Assembly (NCBI GenBank): GCA_964560085.1
Contig: CAZLKF010000002.1
Span: 28,240 to 92,239, forward strand
Source of the DNA: an uncultured Muribaculaceae bacterium
Lineage (GTDB): Bacteria; Bacillota_I; Bacilli_A; RF39; UBA660
Direction of reading: 5' to 3'
DNA length: 64,000 nt
Shown here piece by piece: positions 1,159-53,346 of the stretch; position 1 is the first letter of the stretch; each line of letters opens with the position of its first letter. Below the pieces are notes generated by a model. The model did no database searches. It worked only from the letters and a program-made list of their open reading frames with translations, and was not told where the DNA came from. The translations under genes were made by a program, and so were the position numbers.

Positions 1159-1295
1159 AAATTGACACCTCCAAATAAAAAGTGAATGCGAGACGCATCC
1201 ACTATAAAAACCAAATAATACTTCTATCGGCTTTAAACCCAAAGACTTAAGTCAATCGGGTGAGAAGTGGATACTTCTTCTTTCCTTTTTAATAC
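1159..1295 (-). ncRNA. L20-type ribosomal leader with intrinsic attenuator upstream of infC
   Basis: About 135 nt 5' UTR. It has a 9 bp hairpin (GUGGAUGCG ucu CGCAUUCAC, plus coords 1182-1202) followed by UUUUUAUUU just before the infC RBS, an architecture like the Bacillus infC-rpmI-rplT L20 autoregulatory leader. Confidence 0.45.
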
Positions 1296-3836: not shown

Positions 3837-4706
3837 TCATCTTCCTTCTATTTTTAAACCAAGTCTTTTCACATCATCAGGAATATTCCTTGTTACAGTT
3901 AAACCATTTTTCAAAATACCAAAATTAAACTTATGATAACTGCGAGCTTCGCCATCTAAATTAGCTGAAATAGCATTTGGTATTATAGCTGTGAAATCTA
4001 AATTAGTAATCATTTCTTTCAAGATTTCTGGTTCTGCTTCATGTTGACCTTTTAATACTTTTAATAATAATTTTAGTAATTTTAATCTTGTTACTTCATT
4101 CAATTGATATGCATCTAAAAGGCCATCATTAATTATAGCATTTGGAGCTATTTTAATGCCATTACCATAGTAGCGTCCATTACAAACTGCTAATAGAGTT
4201 ATTTTTTCAAGTGAATAACCTTTTTCAATAATTTGAAAATTTTGCTCTTTTAAGAATTCTCTAATGATTGCTCGTGGATATGGTAAAAATTTAGCAAAAT
4301 GGCGATTTTTTTCAAGAGTTTCAATTACATTAGCATCAAAACCAACTGATGCAATATTTAAGAAATATTCCTGATTCATTATTCCAACATCTATGGTTGC
4401 TGTATCTTCAATTTTACTTTCTTTCAATGTCTTGTAAAAATCATTACCACTTCCAACCGGAATAACTCCCAATATAGCCTTTGATCCAATAATTCCGTTT
4501 GCCACATTATTAAGTGTTCCATCACCACCGACAGCATAAATAATCATCGGTTCTTCTTTATGACTTTCAACCATACTTATTCTAGTAGTTTCCATTGTTG
4601 ACCCCGGAACTAATATTTTTCTATTATCTTTCTTTTTTAAACCGGATAAAACTTTCAAAGATTTCCCATTTCCAGCATAAGGATTTATTATAAATACTTC
4701 TTTCAT
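3837..4706 (-). CDS. lipid kinase, YegS/BmrU/DagK family
   Basis: DAG-kinase catalytic-domain motifs (IINP.AG.GK, AVGGDGTLN), 289 aa. Confidence 0.75.
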   Translation of the reverse strand: MKEVFIINPYAGNGKSLKVLSGLKKKDNRKILVPGSTMETTRISMVESHKEEPMIIYAVGGDGTLNNVANGIIGSKAILGVIPVGSGNDFYKTLKESKIEDTATIDVGIMNQEYFLNIASVGFDANVIETLEKNRHFAKFLPYPRAIIREFLKEQNFQIIEKGYSLEKITLLAVCNGRYYGNGIKIAPNAIINDGLLDAYQLNEVTRLKLLKLLLKVLKGQHEAEPEILKEMITNLDFTAIIPNAISANLDGEARSYHKFNFGILKNGLTVTRNIPDDVKRLGLKIEGR

Positions 4707-4772
4707 ATTATCCCCCTAGTTAATTTTAACATAAAAGATATATTTTTAAAATAAAAAGTTAAAACTATTGTT

Positions 4773-5540
4773 CTAACTTTTCACTTTATGAAATTCTAAT
4801 CTCAACTTATCAGCAATGGTAACAATGAATTCGGAATTAGTAGGTTTAGCTTTGTCTATATCAACACTATGACCAAATATTTCTTCCATCAGATTCCAGC
4901 TTCCACGATTCCAGCTCACTTCAATTGCATGACGGATAGCTCTCTCAACACGTGAAACTGTAGTTGAAAATTTAGATGCTAATTCAGGGTATAATTCTTT
5001 AGTGATGCCACCAATTGTCTCAGGACGCTCATAAATAATACTTATACCTTCTCTAATATATTGATATCCTTTTATATGTGAAGGAATGCCTAATTCGTGT
5101 AAAATTTTAGTAATAGACATATGTAAATTATCGCGCTTAAAATCAATGTTTTTTGTTTCTAAATTCTTCTTTGTAACATCTTGAATTCTTCTTTCTAAAT
5201 CGTCTAAATCAAATGGTTTTAAAATAAAATAATTCACTCCAAATTCTGATACTTGTCTTATAACTTCACTAGCATTATAGCTAGTTGCAACTATGACATT
5301 TTTTTCAATGTTTCTTTTTTTCATTTCCTCTAAAACATAAATTCCGTCTTTTTTTGGCATTATTAAATCAAGAATTATTAAGTCAATTTTATCACCTAAT
5401 TCTTCAATTAATTTTATTCCTTCTTCACCATCATATGCCCAAGAAGTAATTGCTATGTCTTCACTAGTTGCGAAATACTCTTTAATCATTTCTATTAAAT
5501 TTACATTATCATCAATCATCAAAATTTTAGTTTTTTCCAT
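4773..5540 (-). CDS. spo0A: stage 0 sporulation response regulator Spo0A
   Basis: N-terminal receiver domain (D..D....K). The C-terminal Spo0A_C signature [19 protein letters not shown] is diagnostic for Spo0A. Confidence 0.85.
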
Positions 5541-5612
5541 ATATCCTCCTCATATTACGTTTTCATTATAAATTTTGTAAATGTCGAAATGTGTCATAAA
5601 AATAAAAAGAAG

Positions 5613-6335
5613 CTATTTTTCAACAACTTCTTTCATTTTTAATACTTTCTTATAGTCTAATGATGCTCCACCGATCAAAAAACCATCGACATTATTTATT
5701 TGATTTAATTTCTCAATATTTTTTTCACTGACACTACCTCCATATAGAATGCGAGGTTTTATTTCATAAAGATTTGCAACAATAGTAGAAATAAAATCGA
5801 TTGTTTGTTCAATATCCTCGTTTGTAGGAATTAAACCAGTTCCAATTGACCAAATTGGTTCATAAGCAATGATAACATTTTTTAAATCATCTTTGCTAAC
5901 ATCTTTTAAGCCATTAGTGATTTCTCTTTTTAGTACTCTAGTTGTTCGAAGCATTTCACGCTCTTCTTTGGTTTCACCTATACAAAGAATGACTTTAATT
6001 CCTTCTTTAAGAGAATTCTTAATTTTTCTATTTACTATCAAATCATCTTCGCCTTGTTCACTTCGACGTTCACTATGACCAATTATTGTATATGTACCAC
6101 CAAGACTTTTTAATTGCTGGCAAGAAATTTCTCCTGTATGTGCTCCATTATCATATTCTGATATGTTTTGCAATCCAATTGAATATTCATTGGATATAAA
6201 ATATGGCAAGAATATTGAAGGTGGACAGAAAACAAAAGATGCATTGTTTATTTTTCCTTTGATATTCTCAACATAATCACGAATATCTTTATAATTCAAA
6301 TTCATTTTAAAATTAAAAACCATTAATTTTTTCAT
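5613..6335 (-). CDS. tpiA: triosephosphate isomerase
   Basis: FNFKMN, IIGHSERR and AYEPIWSIGTG motifs. Confidence 0.9.
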   Translation of the reverse strand: MKKLMVFNFKMNLNYKDIRDYVENIKGKINNASFVFCPPSIFLPYFISNEYSIGLQNISEYDNGAHTGEISCQQLKSLGGTYTIIGHSERRSEQGEDDLIVNRKIKNSLKEGIKVILCIGETKEEREMLRTTRVLKREITNGLKDVSKDDLKNVIIAYEPIWSIGTGLIPTNEDIEQTIDFISTIVANLYEIKPRILYGGSVSEKNIEKLNQINNVDGFLIGGASLDYKKVLKMKEVVEK

Positions 6336-21995: not shown

Positions 21996-22022
21996 ATAAA
22001 AAAAACAAGAATTAATTCTCGT
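21996..22022 (-). terminator. intrinsic terminator after the acyl-CoA ligase gene
   Basis: ACGAGAAUU/AAUUCUUGU hairpin followed by an 8-9 U run. The stop codon at 22012-22014 sits at the apex. Confidence 0.5.
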
Positions 22023-23742
22023 TTTCATCTTCTAATTTTTTGTATGCTACTTTTCCAACCAGAGTTCTTGGTAAAGAATCACGATATTCAAATATGGCTG
22101 GCATAGAATACTTAGCTAAATTCTTTGCACAATGTTCTTCAATCTCTTTTTTCAGTCTTTCAGTTATTTCAACATCCTCATTCAAAACAACATATGCTTT
22201 TGCAACTTGCACTTTATGAGGATGACTCACCCCAATTACTGTTGAAGTTAAAACTGCCGGATGTTCATTGATAACTTTTTCAACATGCGATGGATAAATA
22301 TTATAACCAGAAGAAACAATAATTCGTTTTATTCGTTGTTTAAAATAAACATAACCATCTTCATCCATACTTCCCATATCACCTGTGTGTAACCAAGTAT
22401 GGCCATCTTCATGAACACGCAACGTTTGTATTGTTTCATTTATATTATCTAGATAGCCTAACATAACTGAAGGACCAGTTATACATATTTCACCATCCGT
22501 ATTACGTGGAGCTTCGTCATGAGTTCCATTGATAACAATTTTAAAATAGGTGTCTGGATAAGGAATACCAATACTGCCTTTGCGATAATAATTATCAGGA
22601 GTTAAACATGTGGCGCCTGCGCATTCAGTTAGACCATATCCTTCTCTTATATAGGCATTACTTCCGTGATCACGCAAATACTTGTCAACACGCGTTTTTA
22701 ATTCTGTATCAAGTGAGTCACCACCACAAATAGCATTTGTAACGCATGCAAGTTCATTTTTACCGAATTCGCTTTTAGTTAAACTGTCGAATAAAGTAGG
22801 TACTCCAGCGACAAAATTAGGGCGATATTTTCTAATTAATCCCACAAATTTACGAGCTGAAAAATCAGGAATTAAGATACACTTCATTCCACTTGATAAT
22901 GGTGTATGAATGCATACGCTTAATCCAAAGCCATGAAAAATCGGCATAATTGATAAAACTGATTCCCCTGGTTTGCTATGACACATCAAATTACTTTGTA
23001 AGGCCATAGAATTAAAGTTTTTATTTGAAAGCATTATTCCCTTAGGGCTTCCAGTTGTTCCACCACTATAAAGAATTACGGCAACACTATCAGCCATTTT
23101 ATGACATTTATAATTGCCTGCATATTTACGACCAGATTCAATAAACTCTTTCCAGTCAATTATGTCTTCTTTTTCAATTTTAGTATTTAGTTTACGTCCT
23201 TTAGTTAGCCAATAAAGAAAAGTCATAGCAAAACCGAAATCGTGAGCGGCAGAAACAACAACCATTTTCTCAACTTTTGTGTTATCGATTATATGCATGA
23301 TTTTTTCATATGATATATCAATTGTAATTAAAAATTTTGTGTTTGATAAATTTAGATAAAATTCAATTTCATTTTCAGCGGATAAAGGATGAATCATATT
23401 AGCAATTGCTCCAACCATATTAACTGCATAAAAAGCAATTAATCCTTGTGGTGTATTAGGCATGCAAATTGTAACACGATCATTTTCTTTGATTCCTTGA
23501 GCTTTTAAAGCTTTAGCAGCTTCTTCGATTTTCTTATAGAAATCTTTATATGTACACTTTGTTCCATAATATTCATAAGCAATATTATCAGCAAATTTAT
23601 TGCTTGATGCTTCAATCATTTCGGATATTGTTCCTTGAAAATAATTCAAATTAGGAGGAACATCCCCATAATATTTAATCCATGGTGCATTTAATTTTTG
23701 GGCATTGTTATTTTGTATTTTCCTCTTGAATAACCTTTTCAC
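22012..23742 (-). CDS. AMP-dependent acyl-CoA synthetase/ligase (long-chain fatty acid--CoA ligase-like)
   Basis: 576 aa; AMP-binding signature YSGGTTGSPKG and C-terminal ...GK... motifs. Confidence 0.8.
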   Translation of the reverse strand: MKRLFKRKIQNNNAQKLNAPWIKYYGDVPPNLNYFQGTISEMIEASSNKFADNIAYEYYGTKCTYKDFYKKIEEAAKALKAQGIKENDRVTICMPNTPQGLIAFYAVNMVGAIANMIHPLSAENEIEFYLNLSNTKFLITIDISYEKIMHIIDNTKVEKMVVVSAAHDFGFAMTFLYWLTKGRKLNTKIEKEDIIDWKEFIESGRKYAGNYKCHKMADSVAVILYSGGTTGSPKGIMLSNKNFNSMALQSNLMCHSKPGESVLSIMPIFHGFGLSVCIHTPLSSGMKCILIPDFSARKFVGLIRKYRPNFVAGVPTLFDSLTKSEFGKNELACVTNAICGGDSLDTELKTRVDKYLRDHGSNAYIREGYGLTECAGATCLTPDNYYRKGSIGIPYPDTYFKIVINGTHDEAPRNTDGEICITGPSVMLGYLDNINETIQTLRVHEDGHTWLHTGDMGSMDEDGYVYFKQRIKRIIVSSGYNIYPSHVEKVINEHPAVLTSTVIGVSHPHKVQVAKAYVVLNEDVEITERLKKEIEEHCAKNLAKYSMPAIFEYRDSLPRTLVGKVAYKKLEDENEN

Positions 23743-24592
23743 TTACATTTTCCTCCAACATTTCAGGGTGTAACATTATATATTCAAACAATTTAATTGA
23801 CTTTGCAAAATAAAAGCCATCGGCAATTCTCTCATCTAATGTTATGCCAAATTCACAAAAATCATGAATTTCAACTTTGCCTTTTTCATTAACATATGGC
23901 TCTTTTTTTATTTCTCCAATTGTTAAAAGAATTGAATTAGTACCAAAATCAGTTAGATTATGATATATTGCTCCACATTCAATACTACCTAGATTAGATA
24001 ATATTATAGAGCTATGGTAAATTGAATTTCCAATCATTGATTCTGGTAATAAATCATGGCGATCGGCCCATTTCAATATTCCCATAATCATTTTAAATAA
24101 ACCTTTTGGTAATTTTCCTAATTTTTGAATTGTATCATCAGTTGAGTTATTTGAATCACTACGAACTTTTTTAACAACATTACTTATTTTTTCATTAACT
24201 TTATTAATATTGTCTTCTTCGTCTATCTTTATAACTGTTAAATTTTCTTTTGCTTCATCAGAAAACTCTACTTTAGCAACAAAAGATAGCGAAACATTAT
24301 CACGATCAAAATAATCCCCATTTATAACAAAACGATTTAATAATGGTCGATTGTATATTGTTCTAGCAATGCCTGTTGCAAAGGCGTGAAAATACGTGAA
24401 TTTACTATCAGGATTTTCTTTCTTTTTTTGAGCAATATAATTAACTAAATTAGTAACATCTATTTTATGATTTATATATACATCCGAATCGCAACGAAGT
24501 GGTTTAAGGCGTAACATAAATTTATGAACACCATCCATATCACGGACTTTATAGCCATCATGACGATCGCCGAATCTTTTTTTCTTATCCAT
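23708..24592 (-). CDS. 2-oxoacid dehydrogenase E2 / CAT-like acyltransferase catalytic-domain protein
   Basis: 294 aa. C-terminal ...LDERIADGFYFAKSIKLFE... resembles the DHRxxDG catalytic segment of E2/CAT-fold acyltransferases, with Glu in place of His. It overlaps the ligase gene by 35 nt. Confidence 0.5.
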   Translation of the reverse strand: MDKKKRFGDRHDGYKVRDMDGVHKFMLRLKPLRCDSDVYINHKIDVTNLVNYIAQKKKENPDSKFTYFHAFATGIARTIYNRPLLNRFVINGDYFDRDNVSLSFVAKVEFSDEAKENLTVIKIDEEDNINKVNEKISNVVKKVRSDSNNSTDDTIQKLGKLPKGLFKMIMGILKWADRHDLLPESMIGNSIYHSSIILSNLGSIECGAIYHNLTDFGTNSILLTIGEIKKEPYVNEKGKVEIHDFCEFGITLDERIADGFYFAKSIKLFEYIMLHPEMLEENVSEKVIQEENTK

Positions 24593-24660
24593 TTTTACCT
24601 CCTAAAAACATTAATAACATTTTAACATTTTTTTCTTCCTTTTTCAAATAGGTAATACTT

Positions 24661-24694
24661 ATAATAAAAAAGTAACTACTTTTTGTAATTACTT
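24661..24694 (-). terminator. intrinsic terminator after trpS
   Basis: 10 bp stem with one mismatch (AAGUAAUUAC aaaaa GUAGUUACUU) followed by a U run; it overlaps the trpS stop. Confidence 0.45.
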
Positions 24695-25680
24695 TATCTA
24701 ATTGTGCCAATTTTTTGCTTCATTTGTTCATACTTTTCCTTGGCAATTTTTCTAGTAATACTAGCGCCTTTATCAAGAATAGCATCTAATTCACCACTAT
24801 TCACTAATTCTTCATATCTTACTTGAAAACTAGTGATTTTTTCGGCCGTCACTTCGCCAACATAAGCTTTAAATTCGCCATAGTTTTTGCCAACAAACAT
24901 ATTCTCTAATTCTTCAATCGTTTTACCAGTCATAACACTCGCGATATTTAACAAATTTGATATGCCAGGTTTATTTTCTTCATCATATTTTACTAACATA
25001 TCAGAGTCAGTTGTTGAACTTTTAATTTTTTTGATAATTGTTTCTTTTGAATCATATAAAGAAATTACCCCATTAGGATTTTCTTCTGATTTGCTCATCT
25101 TCTTACTAGGATCTTTCAAATCCTTTATTTTTGTTCCAACTTGCGTAATATATGCAGTAGGAATCTTAAATGTTTCCCCATACGTATGATTAAATCTGAT
25201 TGCAATGTCACGGGCTAATTCAACATGTTGTTTTTGATCTTCGCCAACCGGAACATAATCCGCATCACAGAATAAGATGTCTGATGCCATCAAAACTGGA
25301 TATGTTAATAAGCCAACTGAAAAATTATTTTTTCCTTTGCTTTTCTCCTTAAACTGAATCATTCTTGATGCTTCCCCATAATAAGTGTTGCATTCTAATA
25401 TCCAAGAAATTGCTGGAATAAATTCATTTTCTGATTGAATGTATATTACGACTTTGTTAGAATCTATCCCACATGCAATATAAGTGGCCACAAACCTTTT
25501 TATTCTATCTCTCAATAATTTTGGATCTTGCATCACTGTTAAAGCATGTAAGTCAGCAACAAACAAAAATATTTCATCAAATTCTTTTTGCATTTCAACT
25601 AATTGTCTTATTGCTCCAATATAATTTCCTAATGTTAATTCCCCTGTTGGTTTTAAACCTGTTAATAATCTTTTCTTCAT
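24694..25680 (-). CDS. trpS: tryptophan--tRNA ligase
   Basis: 328 aa; class I motifs (P.GELTLGNYIGA HIGH-like, KMSKS). Confidence 0.9.
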   Translation of the reverse strand: MKKRLLTGLKPTGELTLGNYIGAIRQLVEMQKEFDEIFLFVADLHALTVMQDPKLLRDRIKRFVATYIACGIDSNKVVIYIQSENEFIPAISWILECNTYYGEASRMIQFKEKSKGKNNFSVGLLTYPVLMASDILFCDADYVPVGEDQKQHVELARDIAIRFNHTYGETFKIPTAYITQVGTKIKDLKDPSKKMSKSEENPNGVISLYDSKETIIKKIKSSTTDSDMLVKYDEENKPGISNLLNIASVMTGKTIEELENMFVGKNYGEFKAYVGEVTAEKITSFQVRYEELVNSGELDAILDKGASITRKIAKEKYEQMKQKIGTIR

Positions 25681-25689
25681 AAATTCCTC

Positions 25690-26748
25690 CTATTTATTAC
25701 ATAATTCTAATAATATTTTTTTATATATTCTAACAGTCTCATTTAATGATGACCTACTAATATGTTCATTATCTTTATGAGCTGTAATTGGACCTGGGCC
25801 TAAAATAATTTTATTTTTATTTAAAACACTTGCTTCTGATAAACCAAAGAATTTTTTACATTTTTTGTTTGTTATTTTTTCATAGTATTTAATTATTTCG
25901 TCATTATTATAAAATGGCAGAAAATCAAATTTAATTATATATTCTATATTATGTTTCTTAGCTAAAGCATTAACATATTTCTTAATATGATTATATTCTT
26001 TAACATCTTTTGTAATTCGAAAATCACAAGTAGCTTTGGTATAATTAGGAACAATATTTACTCTTTCTCCACCATTTATTATACCATAATTCATCGTTGT
26101 ATGCCCAAACTCATATTCATCACACCAACTTTTATGAAAATAGCTCTCTAATTTTAACAATTCATTTAAAAATTTCACACATTTTACATTTGAACTTTCA
26201 ATTGGCATACTTGAATGACTGCTTATACCATTAAATCTAAACTCATATTCAATGACGCCTTTTGAACCATTCATCGGTACATTGTCAGTTGGTTCACCAA
26301 TTATCAAATATTCAGGATAATTAAGATTTAAGCTTTTAAAATACTTTATACCGCCAAAGGATATTTCCTCATCATAGGTAAGAATAATTGTCATTCCATA
26401 TTTTAATTCAGCAAAATCTATTTCTGCCACAGCTTTCAAAATTGCGGCAATACCTCCTTTCATATCACTCGTGCCTAAGCCATATAAATTCCCATTGTTT
26501 TCAGTTAATTTAAAAGGATTACCGCCAAAAGTGTTACGATAACTAACAGTATCGGTATGTCCAACAAAGCCAACCGTTTGTTTTTCTTTTATTGTTGCTA
26601 CAAGAATCTTTTTATCCGCCCCATAAAGTGTACATCTAAAATTTAACTTCTCTAGATAATCCTTTACATATTGCATAATTTTCAAATTATCTTGATCATT
26701 AATGGTATTAAATGCAACCAAATCTTTTAATATTTCTTCAACTTTCAT
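25690..26748 (-). CDS. M20 family metallopeptidase / amidohydrolase (ArgE/DapE-like)
   Basis: 352 aa; GHTDTV metal-binding motif and a dimerisation lid. It is the first gene after the Trp T-box leader and lies 9 nt upstream of trpS. Confidence 0.7.
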   Translation of the reverse strand: MKVEEILKDLVAFNTINDQDNLKIMQYVKDYLEKLNFRCTLYGADKKILVATIKEKQTVGFVGHTDTVSYRNTFGGNPFKLTENNGNLYGLGTSDMKGGIAAILKAVAEIDFAELKYGMTIILTYDEEISFGGIKYFKSLNLNYPEYLIIGEPTDNVPMNGSKGVIEYEFRFNGISSHSSMPIESSNVKCVKFLNELLKLESYFHKSWCDEYEFGHTTMNYGIINGGERVNIVPNYTKATCDFRITKDVKEYNHIKKYVNALAKKHNIEYIIKFDFLPFYNNDEIIKYYEKITNKKCKKFFGLSEASVLNKNKIILGPGPITAHKDNEHISRSSLNETVRIYKKILLELCNK

Positions 26749-26761
26749 ATTATCACCTCAC

Positions 26762-27005
26762 AAAAAAATCCTATCCTAATTATTAGGATAAGATTATATT
26801 CTTATTATGCCACCTATAATGACTACTTTGTACTAACATACAAGTTCCTTTGCTAACAGAGGGAATTCTCCGTACTTGCCTACTACAATTTCGGAAGTCT
26901 TTCATTGGCCCATTCAGCAACTTTAATTTATGGTTTTTCATCAACCAACCACTTTCTAAAAAATTAAATATCACTTACTTCTCCAAATCAACAATTTGCT
27001 TTGTT
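26762..27005 (-). ncRNA. T-box riboswitch leader, Trp-specific (specifier UGG)
   Basis: Read on the minus strand. Stem I has a GA/K-turn base (UUGG..UGAU/UGAAA..CCAA) and a distal loop GGUUGAUGAAAA, with the specifier context GAA-UGG-G. The antiterminator is A1 AUUAUAGG/CCUAaUAAU, a 7 nt bulge UGGCAUA (UGGC pairs with tRNA GCCA), A2 AUAAGA/UCUUAU and an F-box-like CUGUUA. The competing terminator UAUCCUAAU a AUUAGGAUA + GGAUUUUUUU lies 13 nt before the RBS. Confidence 0.6.
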
Positions 27006-27011
27006 AATTTG

Positions 27012-27040
27012 ATTATATAATTGATGTCGTTAAAAGTCAA
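27012..27040 (-). promoter_or_regulatory. sigma-A promoter of the T-box/M20 peptidase/trpS unit
   Basis: Minus strand reads TTGACT, a 17 nt spacer, then TATAAT. Confidence 0.55.
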
Positions 27041-27064
27041 GAAAATTACATTTGACTATCAAAT

Positions 27065-27649
27065 TTAATGCGTTATTTTTTTATGAATATATTCAGCTAT
27101 TTTAGCATGGCCCATATTATTAGGGTGTAATCCATCGGTTAATTCTTCTAAATTAACTATATTCTTCATGTTTATATATGTTACACCATTCTCTTCGCAT
27201 AACTGTTTTAATAAACTATCAATTGCTTCTATATTTGCTTGTTTATACATATCTCTTTTTTCTAAATCAATATCTAATAATCCTAAGAATAAAATGTCTT
27301 TAGTAAATTTTTGAGAAATATGTATTATTTTCAAGACATTTTTTTCAAATATTTTTAAATGTGAAAATCCTTTATTTAATATTAAAGCATCTTTTATACC
27401 AAAAGCAAATAACAATTTAAATTCATCTTCAGTATTGAATCTGTTTTTTAACTCTACCATAAATCGTTTGGCAATGTCTGTCGAACATTGTCCAGGAATA
27501 CTCATATTAAAATAGAACTTTTTTAAATTATTATTATCTTTTCCTTTTAGTCTATTAACCCAACCAAAGCATTCATTATCGCCTACACCATAAGCAATAA
27601 TATCACCAAAAACAATATAAACTTGATCTTTCGCTTGCCCTCTCATCAA
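27065..27649 (-). CDS. SGNH/GDSL-like hydrolase
   Basis: 194 aa; N-terminal IVFGD.I..G block and C-terminal DGLHPN catalytic block. Confidence 0.65.
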   Translation of the reverse strand: MMRGQAKDQVYIVFGDIIAYGVGDNECFGWVNRLKGKDNNNLKKFYFNMSIPGQCSTDIAKRFMVELKNRFNTEDEFKLLFAFGIKDALILNKGFSHLKIFEKNVLKIIHISQKFTKDILFLGLLDIDLEKRDMYKQANIEAIDSLLKQLCEENGVTYINMKNIVNLEELTDGLHPNNMGHAKIAEYIHKKITH

Positions 27650-27712
27650 GCAACATCCTTTCTAAATTAATTAAAATGATATCTATTAATAATATTTTAT
27701 CATTATTTATTT

Positions 27713-27739
27713 AAAAAAAGAAATTGCAAAAGCAATTTC
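27713..27739 (-). terminator. intrinsic terminator after the NUDIX gene
   Basis: GAAAUUGC uuuu GCAAUUUC plus UUUUUUU; the TAG stop lies in the 5' stem. Confidence 0.5.
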
Positions 27740-28233
27740 TATAAATCTTCTTCTTCAACAAATTCAAATGTATCATTTATATTTGTTAGTTTTTCTTTCA
27801 AATAATCTGGTTTTATTGGACTACTTGTAATTTCATTTATATCAATCCATTTATAGACAATTTCTTTATCTTCTTCTATACCTGCAAATTCAACTTGTGA
27901 TAATAATTTTGAATCATCTGGTACATCTACTAAATATCCGAGAATGTATTGATGTTGTTTTTTGTTATCAAAATTAAAGAAATATTCTACAAACCACAAT
28001 GGTCTAACAATTGAAGCTTTATCTTCACCAGTTTCCTCAAGCAATTCTCTTTTTACGACGTCAGTACCTCTTTCAAGAGTACCAATTGCTCCTCCAGGTA
28101 ATGCCCAAAAAGAATCTTTTTTGCGCTTTTGAAATAAAACTTTATTGTTTTTTATAATGACTGCTGCGGCTCTAGCACTAAATTTGACTTCATTAATCAT
28201 TAATCTAATATCATTATTTTCCATATTTCTCAC
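27739..28233 (-). CDS. NUDIX hydrolase
   Basis: Nudix box GGAIGTLERGTDVVKRELLEETGE. Confidence 0.85.
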   Translation of the reverse strand: MRNMENNDIRLMINEVKFSARAAAVIIKNNKVLFQKRKKDSFWALPGGAIGTLERGTDVVKRELLEETGEDKASIVRPLWFVEYFFNFDNKKQHQYILGYLVDVPDDSKLLSQVEFAGIEEDKEIVYKWIDINEITSSPIKPDYLKEKLTNINDTFEFVEEEDL

Positions 28234-51353: not shown

Positions 51354-51376
51354 TCAAAAAAAGAGTTTACACTCTT
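51354..51376 (-). terminator. intrinsic terminator after serS
   Basis: AAGAGU guaa ACUCUU plus UUUUUUUG; it overlaps the serS stop. Confidence 0.5.
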
Positions 51377-52668
51377 TATTTTATTTTAAATGGTGTTATT
51401 ACTTCTTTATTGCCCATATATTTCCTTAAAGATTCTGGAATAGTAATACTTCCATCTTCATTGTAATTGTTCTCAAGTAAGGCAATTAAGGCCCTAGTAC
51501 TTGCTAAAACGGTATTATTCAATGTATGAACAAAATATGTGCCATTTTCACCCTTTGCTCTAATACCTAAGCGGCGTGCTTGAGCATCACCTAAAGTTGA
51601 GCAAGAACAAACTTCAAAATATTTTTGTTGTCTAGGACTCCATGCCTCAATATCACATGATTTAACTTTTAAATCGGCCAAATCACCACTACAACATTCA
51701 AGAGTTCTAACTGGAATATTCAAAGTTCTAAATAATTCAACTGAATAATTCCACATTTTGTTATACCAATCCATTGATTCTTCAGGTTTGCATAAAACTA
51801 CCATTTCTTGCTTTTCAAATTGATGAACACGGTAAATTCCACGCTCTTCAATACCATGAGCACCTACTTCTTTTCTAAAACATGGTGAATAACTAGTCAT
51901 TGTTATTGGCAAATTTTCTTCTTTGATTATCTGATCTTTAAATTTTCCAATCATTGAATGTTCACTTGTTCCTATTAAATATAAATCTTCGCCTTCAATT
52001 TTGTACATCATAGCATCCATTTCAGCAAATGACATAACACCATTAACAACATCGCCTCTTATCATAAAGGGTGGCAAACAATAAGTAAAACCTTTATCAA
52101 TCATAAAATCCCTAGCATAACTAATCATTGCACTTATAAGGCGAGCGCCATCGCCCATTAAGTAATAGAAACCATTGCCACTTGTTCTACCTGCACTATC
52201 TTTATCAAGACCATTAAAACTTTCTAAAATATCAGCATGATATGGTATTTCATAAGCAGGAACAATTGGTTCTCCGAATTTTTGATTTTCAACATTTTTA
52301 GTGTCATTTTCACCAATTGGCACCGAAGCGTCAATAATATTTGGTATTACCATCATCTTATTTTTAATTTCAATTGCTAATTGTTCTTCTGCTTGATCTA
52401 ATTCTGTTATTCTATCACCATATGAAGCGATTTGTTCCTTAACTTGCATCGCTTCTTCTTTTTTGCCATCACGCATTAAATTACCAATTAAAGCACTTTT
52501 AGCGTTTTTTTCGGCTCTTAAAGCATCACCTTTTTGTTTCGCTTCACGATATTTTAAATCAAGATCATAAATTTCATCAACTAAAGGTAATTTTTGATCT
52601 TGAAATTTCTTCTTTATATTTTCTTTAACTAATTCTTTATTTTCTCTTATTAAATTAATGTCTATCAT
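51376..52668 (-). CDS. serS: serine--tRNA ligase
   Basis: 430 aa; N-terminal coiled-coil arm; class II core (…FRKEVGAHG…, …GDAQARRLGIR…). Confidence 0.9.
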   Translation of the reverse strand: MIDINLIRENKELVKENIKKKFQDQKLPLVDEIYDLDLKYREAKQKGDALRAEKNAKSALIGNLMRDGKKEEAMQVKEQIASYGDRITELDQAEEQLAIEIKNKMMVIPNIIDASVPIGENDTKNVENQKFGEPIVPAYEIPYHADILESFNGLDKDSAGRTSGNGFYYLMGDGARLISAMISYARDFMIDKGFTYCLPPFMIRGDVVNGVMSFAEMDAMMYKIEGEDLYLIGTSEHSMIGKFKDQIIKEENLPITMTSYSPCFRKEVGAHGIEERGIYRVHQFEKQEMVVLCKPEESMDWYNKMWNYSVELFRTLNIPVRTLECCSGDLADLKVKSCDIEAWSPRQQKYFEVCSCSTLGDAQARRLGIRAKGENGTYFVHTLNNTVLASTRALIALLENNYNEDGSITIPESLRKYMGNKEVITPFKIK

Positions 52669-53120
52669 TTTAATTCCTCCAATTTTGCTTGTATTTTTAT
52701 GTAAGCTGGTCGATATCTTTTCTCTACTCTATCCATATCTTTTATGGTTGGATTTTTTATACGTGAAATATCCATGTTATGATTTAAATCAGCTAATTTC
52801 ACATTTAAAGCATCAATATTGTTCGAGGCAACAATACGATCTATATACTCCCTATAATCTTCATTATCTTTTCTTGTTAATATTTGAATTGCTTCGATTA
52901 TCTCCATAGCAAAGCCTGCTTCTTTTAAATCTTCGGCTGTCATATTAGTATCTTCAATAACATCATGTAAAAGACCAATTATTTTGGTATTTTCACCACT
53001 CACGCGATTGCTTACCTCATAAAGATGATCTAGGTAAGGATACCCACCCTTATCTAGTTTGTCAGAAAATAAATTTTTAATTATTTCCTCACTTTTTTCC
53101 AAAGCATTAAATTCTTTCAT
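52665..53120 (-). CDS. small alarmone hydrolase: HD-domain (p)ppGpp pyrophosphohydrolase of the RelA/SpoT hydrolase family
   Basis: 151 aa single domain; HD (YLDH), LLHDVIEDT and KLADLNHNM motifs match the SpoT/Mesh1 hydrolase signature. Start ATG 53120 follows GGAGGA; the stop overlaps the serS start. Confidence 0.75.
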   Translation of the reverse strand: MKEFNALEKSEEIIKNLFSDKLDKGGYPYLDHLYEVSNRVSGENTKIIGLLHDVIEDTNMTAEDLKEAGFAMEIIEAIQILTRKDNEDYREYIDRIVASNNIDALNVKLADLNHNMDISRIKNPTIKDMDRVEKRYRPAYIKIQAKLEELK

Positions 53121-53124
53121 ATAT

Positions 53125-53300
53125 CCTCCTCTACAAAAAAAGACTATTATAGGAGTGCCTTGCACGGTACCATCCTACTAGTCCTTAATTTTTATAACGG
53201 TTCCCCGGAGAAGTTTTGCTTCTCTCATCCGAAGTAGATTCATAAATTTAATTGACTAGTTTCCATCAACCACTAATTTTCTATCACAATACCATTTATT
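53125..53300 (-). ncRNA. T-box riboswitch leader, Ser-specific (specifier UCU)
   Basis: Read on the minus strand: Stem I distal loop GGUUGAUGGAAA; specifier context GAA-UCU-A; F-box CCGUUA. The T-box core UAGUAGGAUGGUACCGUG matches the AGGGUGGNACCGCG consensus with a canonical 7 nt bulge UGGUACC, a small helix GUGC aag GCAC, then UCCUAUAAUAGUC and U7 right before the RBS. Confidence 0.65.
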
Positions 53301-53346
53301 ACTATTCTTCTTCAACGATTTACAATGTTATTATACATTCTGCCAT

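Follow-up and report, generated by a model that had tools for sequence, protein, structure and literature searches.

We analyzed a 64-kb stretch of DNA from an uncultured bacterium (contig CAZLKF010000002.1; hereafter the window), in which an operon containing trpS opens with a gene for an M20-family metallohydrolase and is preceded by a leader with the features of a Trp T-box. Promoter, leader and both genes lie on the minus strand, and coordinates are positions in the window. A promoter and terminator scan of 24500..27800 (3.3 kb) gave as its top-scoring site a sigma-70-type promoter, TTGACT-17-TATAAT, at 27040..27012, with 11 of 12 matches. The leader match begins ~12 nt downstream, and after it come an intrinsic terminator and two open reading frames. 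The first of these (26748..25690) encodes an ArgE/DapE-like M20 metallohydrolase of 352 aa with no evident signal peptide, and the second (25680..24694) encodes tryptophan--tRNA ligase, TrpS, of 328 aa, which matched TIGR00233 over residues 1–325 at 334.1 bits (cutoff 176.75). An earlier reading of the letters and open reading frames (the sequence-only reading) had called this promoter, an M20 gene as first reading frame and trpS 9 nt behind it; the promoter was found as described, and the Peptidase_M20 (PF01546) and M20_dimer (PF07687) matches, followed by that to TIGR00233, bear out the gene order.

The gap between the genes reads UAG-GAGGAAUUU-AUG, with the trpS ribosome-binding site overlapping the M20 stop codon, an arrangement from which trpS is predicted to be translationally coupled to the M20 gene. 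Directly after the trpS stop, at 24695..24665, an AU-rich 11-bp hairpin (AAAGUAAUUAC/GUAGUUACUUU) is followed by the U-run UUUUUAUUAU. With fewer than 3 G-C pairs, this likely operon terminator escaped the scan. A promoter-like site lies beyond it at 24647..24619 (-). With a terminator directly after trpS and then a promoter-like site, the operon looks bicistronic, consisting of M20 and trpS. There is no room for a separate promoter of the M20 gene between the terminator of the leader and the M20 ribosome-binding site.

A default Rfam scan of the whole window at the gathering score reported no T-box. The gathering score for RF00230 is 93 bits, and permissive mode was needed to report T-boxes below it; in that mode the leader, at 27000..26781, matched RF00230 at 79.5 bits (E = 1.4e-17), covering the whole model (1–219) from Stem I through Stem II, IIA/B and Stem III to the antiterminator. 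Hence the covariance model, which the sequence-only reading had proposed as a check, does not reject the leader. All eight T-boxes found in the window and the close-clade loci scored 70–89 bits. Such scores are typical of this lineage, whose GC content is roughly 30%, and since all eight of its T-boxes fall under 93 bits, the gathering threshold is too strict there. We therefore judged membership in the T-box family on structural features.

Stem I (26986..26905) contains a K-turn, specifier loop, AG bulge and distal loop. The GA/K-turn motif UGA...GAA and the AG bulge AGAAA could be read in the leader sequence as aligned to RF00230, and the distal loop is GGUUGAUGAAAA at 26946..26935. Minimum free energy (MFE) folding of the single sequence reproduced Stem I. 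Its helices 1–3 are 84–100% paired across five lineages, with compensatory changes in 18 of 24 pairs. The K-turn, distal loop and specifier named in the sequence-only reading are thus all present in both sequence and alignment. The T-box architecture that it assigned also stands; its leader length of roughly 240 nt does not, as ~255 nt separate the predicted start site from the ATG. It had further called the T-box core divergent, which is right for the AU-rich AUAGGUGGCAUAAUAAG, yet the canonical motifs are all present.

The specifier stretch GAA-UGG-G occupies 26915..26909, with UGG at 26912..26910 and a purine following at 26909. It is unpaired both in the MFE structure and in the RNAalifold consensus, so that single-sequence folding displays GAAUGGG in the Stem I internal loop, as had been proposed. 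The codon sits on the 3' side of the loop, a purine follows it and trpS lies downstream. The surrounding sequence GAAUGGGCC also holds overlapping AUG and GGG triplets, and three relatives have an extra G (GAAGUGGG), which raises the alternative that the switch reads a different triplet, namely AUG (Met), GGG (Gly) or, in leaders of the L083 type, GUG (Val; L numbers denote loci of relatives), and does not sense tRNA-Trp. However, L083, L174 and L178 do not retain AUG, and L180 (GAAUGGA) has no GGG. In seven of seven leaders, the one triplet that keeps its register is UGG, followed by a purine and directly 5' of the closing helix. The downstream synthetase, moreover, is TrpRS, and the antiterminator bulge matches G73 of tRNA-Trp genes in the same loci. 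We regard a different register as exceedingly improbable.

Folding placed the antiterminator at 26816..26784, as UAGG, the 7-nt bulge UGGCAUA (26812..26806) and AUAAG, then a loop, then CUUAU and CCUA. The intrinsic terminator has a 13-bp stem with a 3-nt loop (26795..26767) and a U-run extending to 26762, found by both the scan and folding. The 3' strand of the antiterminator, CUUAUCCUA, is common to the 5' arm of the terminator, so the two structures are mutually exclusive. In single-sequence folding both formed, the antiterminator at -4.6 kcal/mol with its 7-nt bulge reproduced, and the terminator domain at -17.0 kcal/mol. The bulged antiterminator and the terminator put forward from the letters therefore reappear in the fold; the spacing put forward with them, a terminator 13 nt before the ribosome-binding site, has to be corrected, as the stem ends ~7 nt and the U-run 2 nt before GAGG.

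The UGGC of the bulge is invariant in all seven leaders. Its proposed pairing with the GCCA end of tRNA-Trp was tested in relatives, as no tRNA gene lies in the 64-kb window. In L090, L178 and L180, tRNA-Trp(CCA) genes encode G73-CCA, the exact complement of the bulge UGGC, in agreement with the proposal. These genes adjoin the Trp T-box loci (L090 1840-2226, L178 1803-1876, L180 1540-1613). The tRNA gene of L090 extends to the first base of the T-box match, and the two share a promoter-like site (TTGACT-17-TATACT) ahead of them, so that the tRNA and the RNA that would sense it may be co-transcribed.

We assessed conservation in a leader alignment of five lineages (A4; 77% mean column identity), counting 47 pairs after excluding one long-range RNAalifold helix, 108-113/202-206, that we judged spurious. 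From this alignment RNAalifold independently recovered IIA/B, Stem III, the terminator and Stem I, in which the specifier was left unpaired. Pairing was found in 94% of cells, versus 39–50% with slid partners, and compensatory changes in 23 of the 47 pairs, versus 3–7 with slid partners. Shuffled controls reached the observed values in 0 of 500 cases on four of five measures and in 7 of 500 on the fifth. The terminator helix (helix 6) is 100% paired across the lineages, with 2 compensatory pairs. UGG, UGGC, AGAGA, AGUA and GGUGG are invariant across lineages whose proteins are ~60–65% identical.

These results bear on whether the leader is a decayed, non-functional T-box or a mere terminator. 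Such decay could account for 79.5 bits against a threshold of 93, for the divergent AUAGGUGGCAUAAUAAG and for antiterminator helices that are AU-rich and weak (-4.6 kcal/mol). The match nonetheless spans the full model at E = 1e-17, and every T-box found in the window and the close-clade loci scores 70–89 bits, including a canonical-looking Ser T-box elsewhere in the window. A weak antiterminator is normal, because the tRNA stabilizes it. Together with the strong covariation, the invariant functional positions and the bulge that matches the 3' end of tRNA-Trp, this makes decay very improbable.

We interpret the leader as a class-I transcription-attenuating T-box riboswitch specific for tRNA-Trp, the reading first reached from the letters and now supported by the model match, the displayed UGG and the antiterminator/terminator anatomy. 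RNA polymerase would start ~5 nt upstream of the leader. Stem I would bind tRNA-Trp, the CCA anticodon pairing with the UGG specifier and the tRNA stacking on the distal-loop platform. An uncharged tRNA would pair through its free 3'-GCCA end with the UGGC of the bulge, and the antiterminator so stabilized would tie up the 5' arm of the terminator, allowing read-through into M20 and trpS. With charged tRNA-Trp, the much more stable terminator (26795..26762) would form and transcription would stop 14 nt before the ATG. Given the anatomy, the covariation and the established biology of T-boxes, tRNA-dependent antitermination very probably operates in vivo.

The first gene so controlled has the catalytic and the inserted dimerization domains of M20 enzymes, and the matches to PF01546 (88.5 bits) and PF07687 (57.9 bits) both exceed their cutoffs. 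Residues H64, D95, E127/E128, E152 and H324 are invariant in two family alignments (A1 and A3), and H178 is invariant in A3 and at least 90% conserved in A1; the motifs GHTDTV, DMKGG, DEE, GEPT, AHxxxEH and HSS are conserved in the family. Among solved structures, E. coli ArgE (7rsf, E = 4e-32) is the nearest in sequence, and its metal and catalytic motifs align. An AlphaFold (AF2) model (predicted local distance difference test score, pLDDT, 90.6) superposed best on ArgE (template-modeling score, TM, 0.86–0.91) and then on DapE; carboxypeptidase G2, LysK and carnosinase/PepV types ranked further down. The protein shares with E. coli ArgE (7rsf, 8uw6) and DapE (e.g. 5vo3) the two-domain M20 fold with its dimerization domain, the di-metal ligands, the catalytic Glu and the HSS histidine of the dimerization domain. 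It is predicted on these grounds to be a cytoplasmic, catalytically competent di-metal deacylase of the ArgE/DapE type.

Could it simply be ArgE (N-acetylornithine deacetylase) or DapE (succinyl-DAP desuccinylase), placed in a Trp operon incidentally? Its nearest structures are those of the two enzymes, and so are its best NCBIfam matches. The scores are far under every equivalog cutoff, however (TIGR01892, 190.6 versus 297.7; NF003474, 185.1 versus 460; TIGR01246, 119 versus 362), and the subfamily model TIGR01910 also fell short, at 163 versus 217.6. We accordingly did not file the protein as ArgE or DapE. Unlike ArgE, to which it is only 25–26% identical, it lies under Trp control and outside any arginine or lysine pathway context: its neighbors are GNAT, trpS, a DcuC/AbgT-type carrier or fmt, and no arg or dap genes were next to M20 in any locus examined. 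An ordinary ArgE or DapE is thus improbable. The sequence-only reading had suggested a dipeptidase or a deacylase; we favor the deacylase, because of the similarity to ArgE/DapE in fold and sequence and because of a GNAT partner found in relatives.

We searched for M20 relatives in genomes and metagenomes. The genome scan covered 80 GTDB species-representative loci, with 51% identity or less to the window protein, and the metagenome scan 80 loci, mostly distant relatives with a few close ones added, for a total of 160 loci. Of 805 relatives at E of 1e-20 or better, ~20 clusters were at 55–66% identity, all metagenomic. We place the lineage among uncultured low-GC Bacillota on the strength of the names that relatives at 42–51% identity bear. 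A Trp T-box lies directly before the M20 gene, or before a GNAT-M20 pair, in six other metagenomic lineages. The order T-box, M20, GNAT, trpS occurs in four of them: L083/84 (65% identity; GNAT of 226 aa), L174/75 (62%), L178 (64%) and L090-93 (64%), the last with tRNA-Trp ahead of the T-box. In L085/86 (59%), the T-box is followed by M20, HD_4 and CYTH genes, with no trpS within 9 kb. In L180, a Trp T-box (GAA-UGG-A, UGGC, 88.8 bits) precedes GNAT and then M20, with no trpS within 10.7 kb. Counting the window, trpS is part of the operon in five of seven lineages. The linkage of T-box, M20 and trpS that the sequence-only reading had asked about is therefore real, but only inside a narrow clade.

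The GNAT protein belongs to a family of 220–233 aa, represented by 46 clusters among 5.8 billion proteins, all unnamed except for one "hypothetical protein". It adjoins M20 in six of seven contexts examined (L083 5068-5748, L090 3291-3953, L174 1887-2573, L173 2438-3118, L178 5001-5687 and L180 5001-5702), usually between M20 and trpS, with the order reversed in L180. In the seventh, L179, it stands without M20 among SIR2 and HIRAN genes. There was no meaningful PDB match by sequence; its model has a generic GNAT fold, closest to the amino-group acetyltransferases EctA, RimI and Ard1/Naa. The window lineage is without this partner, and the window itself has no homolog of the GNAT, of HD_4 or of the decarboxylase described next.

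A pyridoxal phosphate-dependent group II decarboxylase is a conserved upstream neighbor of the T-box/M20 locus (L083 2297-3688, L090 373-1788, L173 2-1342, L178 2250-3620, L180 26-1495); in L173 a gap of 14 nt without a leader separates it from M20. Its closest matches are histidine and serine decarboxylases (NF002748 at 237 bits, below cutoff; PDB 8jij and 7erv at ~1e-38). We had considered a tryptamine pathway for it, an idea dropped when its PDB matches included no known Trp decarboxylase. In the wider M20 family (~45% identity), a DcuC/AbgT-type carrier gene often follows M20 (e.g. L004 5129-6475 and L006 5136-6560), resembling the abgT-abgAB and yfcC-M20D arrangements for importing a conjugate and then hydrolyzing it. 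In L024, two full-score T-boxes (104.5 and 105.7 bits) in front of other genes and two tRNA genes follow a distant M20 homolog in tandem (4426-6088); they are not connected with the M20 gene.

The main rival to a role for M20 in tryptophan supply is that the T-box serves trpS, with M20, and GNAT in relatives, as passengers. Non-synthetase genes are common leaders of T-box operons for aminoacyl-tRNA synthetases, with COG4894-alaS, SP_0565-rimL-SP_0567-valS and pheS-paiA-pheT as examples. The Ser T-box operon of the window, described below, likewise begins with a non-synthetase gene. Among the distant homologs in the 160 loci (51% identity or less in genomes, below 60% in metagenomes), nhmmer found no leader and none had an adjacent trpS; eight genome loci with large gaps upstream of M20 had no T-box there by Rfam. 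Some close relatives are also without one. L173 has decarboxylase, M20, GNAT and Peptidase_S51 genes, and L087, L176 and L177 (55–58% identity) have fmt and then M20, all without a T-box. In L097, M20 is followed by a terminator and promoter and then by trpS, with no leader match by nhmmer.

We nevertheless consider a passenger role unlikely. L085 and L180 keep an intact Trp T-box before M20 or GNAT-M20 while having no trpS in the operon or within 9–10.7 kb, which indicates, on the evidence of gene order, that M20 itself is a selected target of the Trp regulon. The M20 of L180 is only 26–35% identical to the others, yet it too stands behind a Trp T-box and next to a member of that GNAT family, which is hard to explain by hitch-hiking. 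The T-box-less L173, L087, L176 and L177 nest inside the T-box-bearing clade in a neighbor-joining tree without support values, and this nesting suggests that they lost the T-box secondarily.

We thus prefer the explanation that a Trp T-box controls an M20-trpS operon in which M20 is a deacylase of the Trp regulon, and taken whole we think it likely to be correct. As the T-box/hydrolase pairing recurs in related low-GC bacteria, the hydrolase probably helps supply tryptophan. When charging of tRNA-Trp falls, M20 might free tryptophan from N-acyl or other conjugates while TrpRS levels go up; for this particular activity our confidence is tentative, somewhat short of an even chance. Besides the homologs and close relatives that have no T-box, several points weigh against the explanation. 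The leader falls short of the Rfam threshold, promoter-like sites inside the M20 gene could drive T-box-independent expression of trpS, and the M20 sequence carries nothing that points specifically to tryptophan. The GNAT acetyltransferase co-induced in relatives fits poorly with a simple model of deacetylating N-acetyl-Trp. Unrelated leading genes such as those of COG4894-alaS and rimL-valS, and that of the Ser T-box operon, also belong here.

The GNAT partner leads to a more speculative proposal. M20 and GNAT could be a two-enzyme module, induced by uncharged tRNA-Trp, that salvages or repairs modified or conjugated tryptophan by way of N-acetyl protection and so makes it usable again, a logic like that of ArgA/ArgE or of the cysteine salvage pathway of Bacillus subtilis, which acetylates, transforms and deacetylates. 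More generally, T-boxes in this lineage might wire tRNA charging directly to stress physiology, given the alarmone hydrolase-like gene and serS behind the Ser T-box and the HD_4 and CYTH genes behind the L085 Trp T-box. We rate this larger proposal as quite unlikely. If true, the M20/GNAT module would amount to a new route of tryptophan supply in uncultured low-GC Bacillota that are probably auxotrophic. At several of these loci alarmone-related genes are clustered. The HD_4 gene (RelA/SpoT hydrolase-type, 317 aa) and the CYTH gene lie directly behind the T-box-controlled M20, at L085 5099-6635. Full RelA/SpoT homologs flank the locus in L083 (774-1973), L090 (5365-6804) and L180 (7671-9113).

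The Ser T-box, at 53323..53148 (-), also scored below threshold (80 bits), with a canonical T-box core and the specifier GAA-UCU-A. Its first gene, from an ATG at 53120 to 52665 (-), encodes ~151 aa and has no Pfam match; it matched the (p)ppApp hydrolase of PDB 7smg (E = 5.8e-24) and then RelA/SpoT hydrolase domains, and is a putative small alarmone hydrolase-like gene. The serS gene (52668..51376, -) overlaps it by 4 nt. Our literature search returned nothing joining "T-box" with "small alarmone hydrolase". The 3' domain of this T-box (53105-53200, -) folds as a long hairpin with a U-run (-23.6 kcal/mol, z -3.1) that contains the outer helix of the antiterminator rather than competing with it. 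In the folding model, an alternative pairing of CUCCUAUA with UGUAGAGGAG could sequester the ribosome-binding site of the Ser operon.

Two further observations concern the window. A ribosomal protein L20 leader (RF00558) at 1168-1288 (-) scored 58.2 bits, against a gathering score of 58.7. The next unit downstream of trpS, at 22012-24592 (-), encodes a 294-aa protein and a 576-aa AMP-binding acyl-CoA ligase in reading frames that overlap by 35 nt. The 294-aa protein has only a C-terminal domain like that of 2-oxoacid dehydrogenase acyltransferases, and no NCBIfam match.

Few clues from sequence alone can tie a gene of unknown function to an amino acid, and T-box specifiers are among them. Here the Trp T-box labels an M20 subfamily and, through relatives, a GNAT family as tryptophan-responsive in uncultured low-GC Bacillota from gut and anaerobic-digester metagenomes. 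This is a functional lead for two uncharacterized families, with a Trp-releasing deacylase or a GNAT/M20 salvage module as testable hypotheses. That the Rfam threshold misses every T-box found in this lineage also matters for automated annotation of AT-rich metagenome-assembled genomes.

The leader shares with class-I T-box leaders (RF00230), such as those of trpS, tyrS and glyQS of Bacillus subtilis, the full architecture, including the 7-nt UGGN bulge. It differs from them in its AU-rich, divergent core and in having M20 as first gene, and in two relatives the operon has no synthetase. A close parallel in regulated gene is the Met T-box with hmrB, where an amino-acid T-box likewise induces an amidohydrolase with genes that restore supply. 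That system responds to Met rather than Trp, and its partner is an ABC transporter, compared with the synthetase here (plus GNAT in relatives). We take hmrB to be of the M20D/HmrA type, whereas the window protein is presumably M20A, ArgE/DapE-like.

For many Firmicutes, trpS with a Trp specifier ahead of it is listed as a regulon member, and the Trp T-box regulon, as given in RegPrecise, already extends past trpS to genes of biosynthesis, of uptake, among them that of the peptide-binding protein oppA, and of regulation. In part 1 of 2 of the table in supplement 2 of PMC3766115, its genes are trpS, trp operons, trpXYZ, trpP, trpB2, oppA, rtpA-ycbK and yhdH, and no hydrolase, deacylase or GNAT is in the Trp column of that part. 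In Clostridioides difficile, a lysine riboswitch is found with yfcC, a DcuC-family carrier, and an M20D amidohydrolase (PMC11477304). There too an amino-acid-sensing leader RNA stands over an M20 amidohydrolase, and the wider family of the window M20 is also paired with DcuC/AbgT-type carriers (L004, L006); the C. difficile system differs in being a metabolite riboswitch rather than a T-box and in its M20 subfamily, and its function is likewise uncharacterized. In our literature search, no paper described an M20 or GNAT gene alongside a Trp T-box, yet there are these precedents for an amino-acid-sensing RNA with an amidohydrolase. We therefore describe the Trp T-box/M20 arrangement as an expansion of the known Trp T-box regulon, one that adds a hydrolase to it and is not mechanistically surprising.

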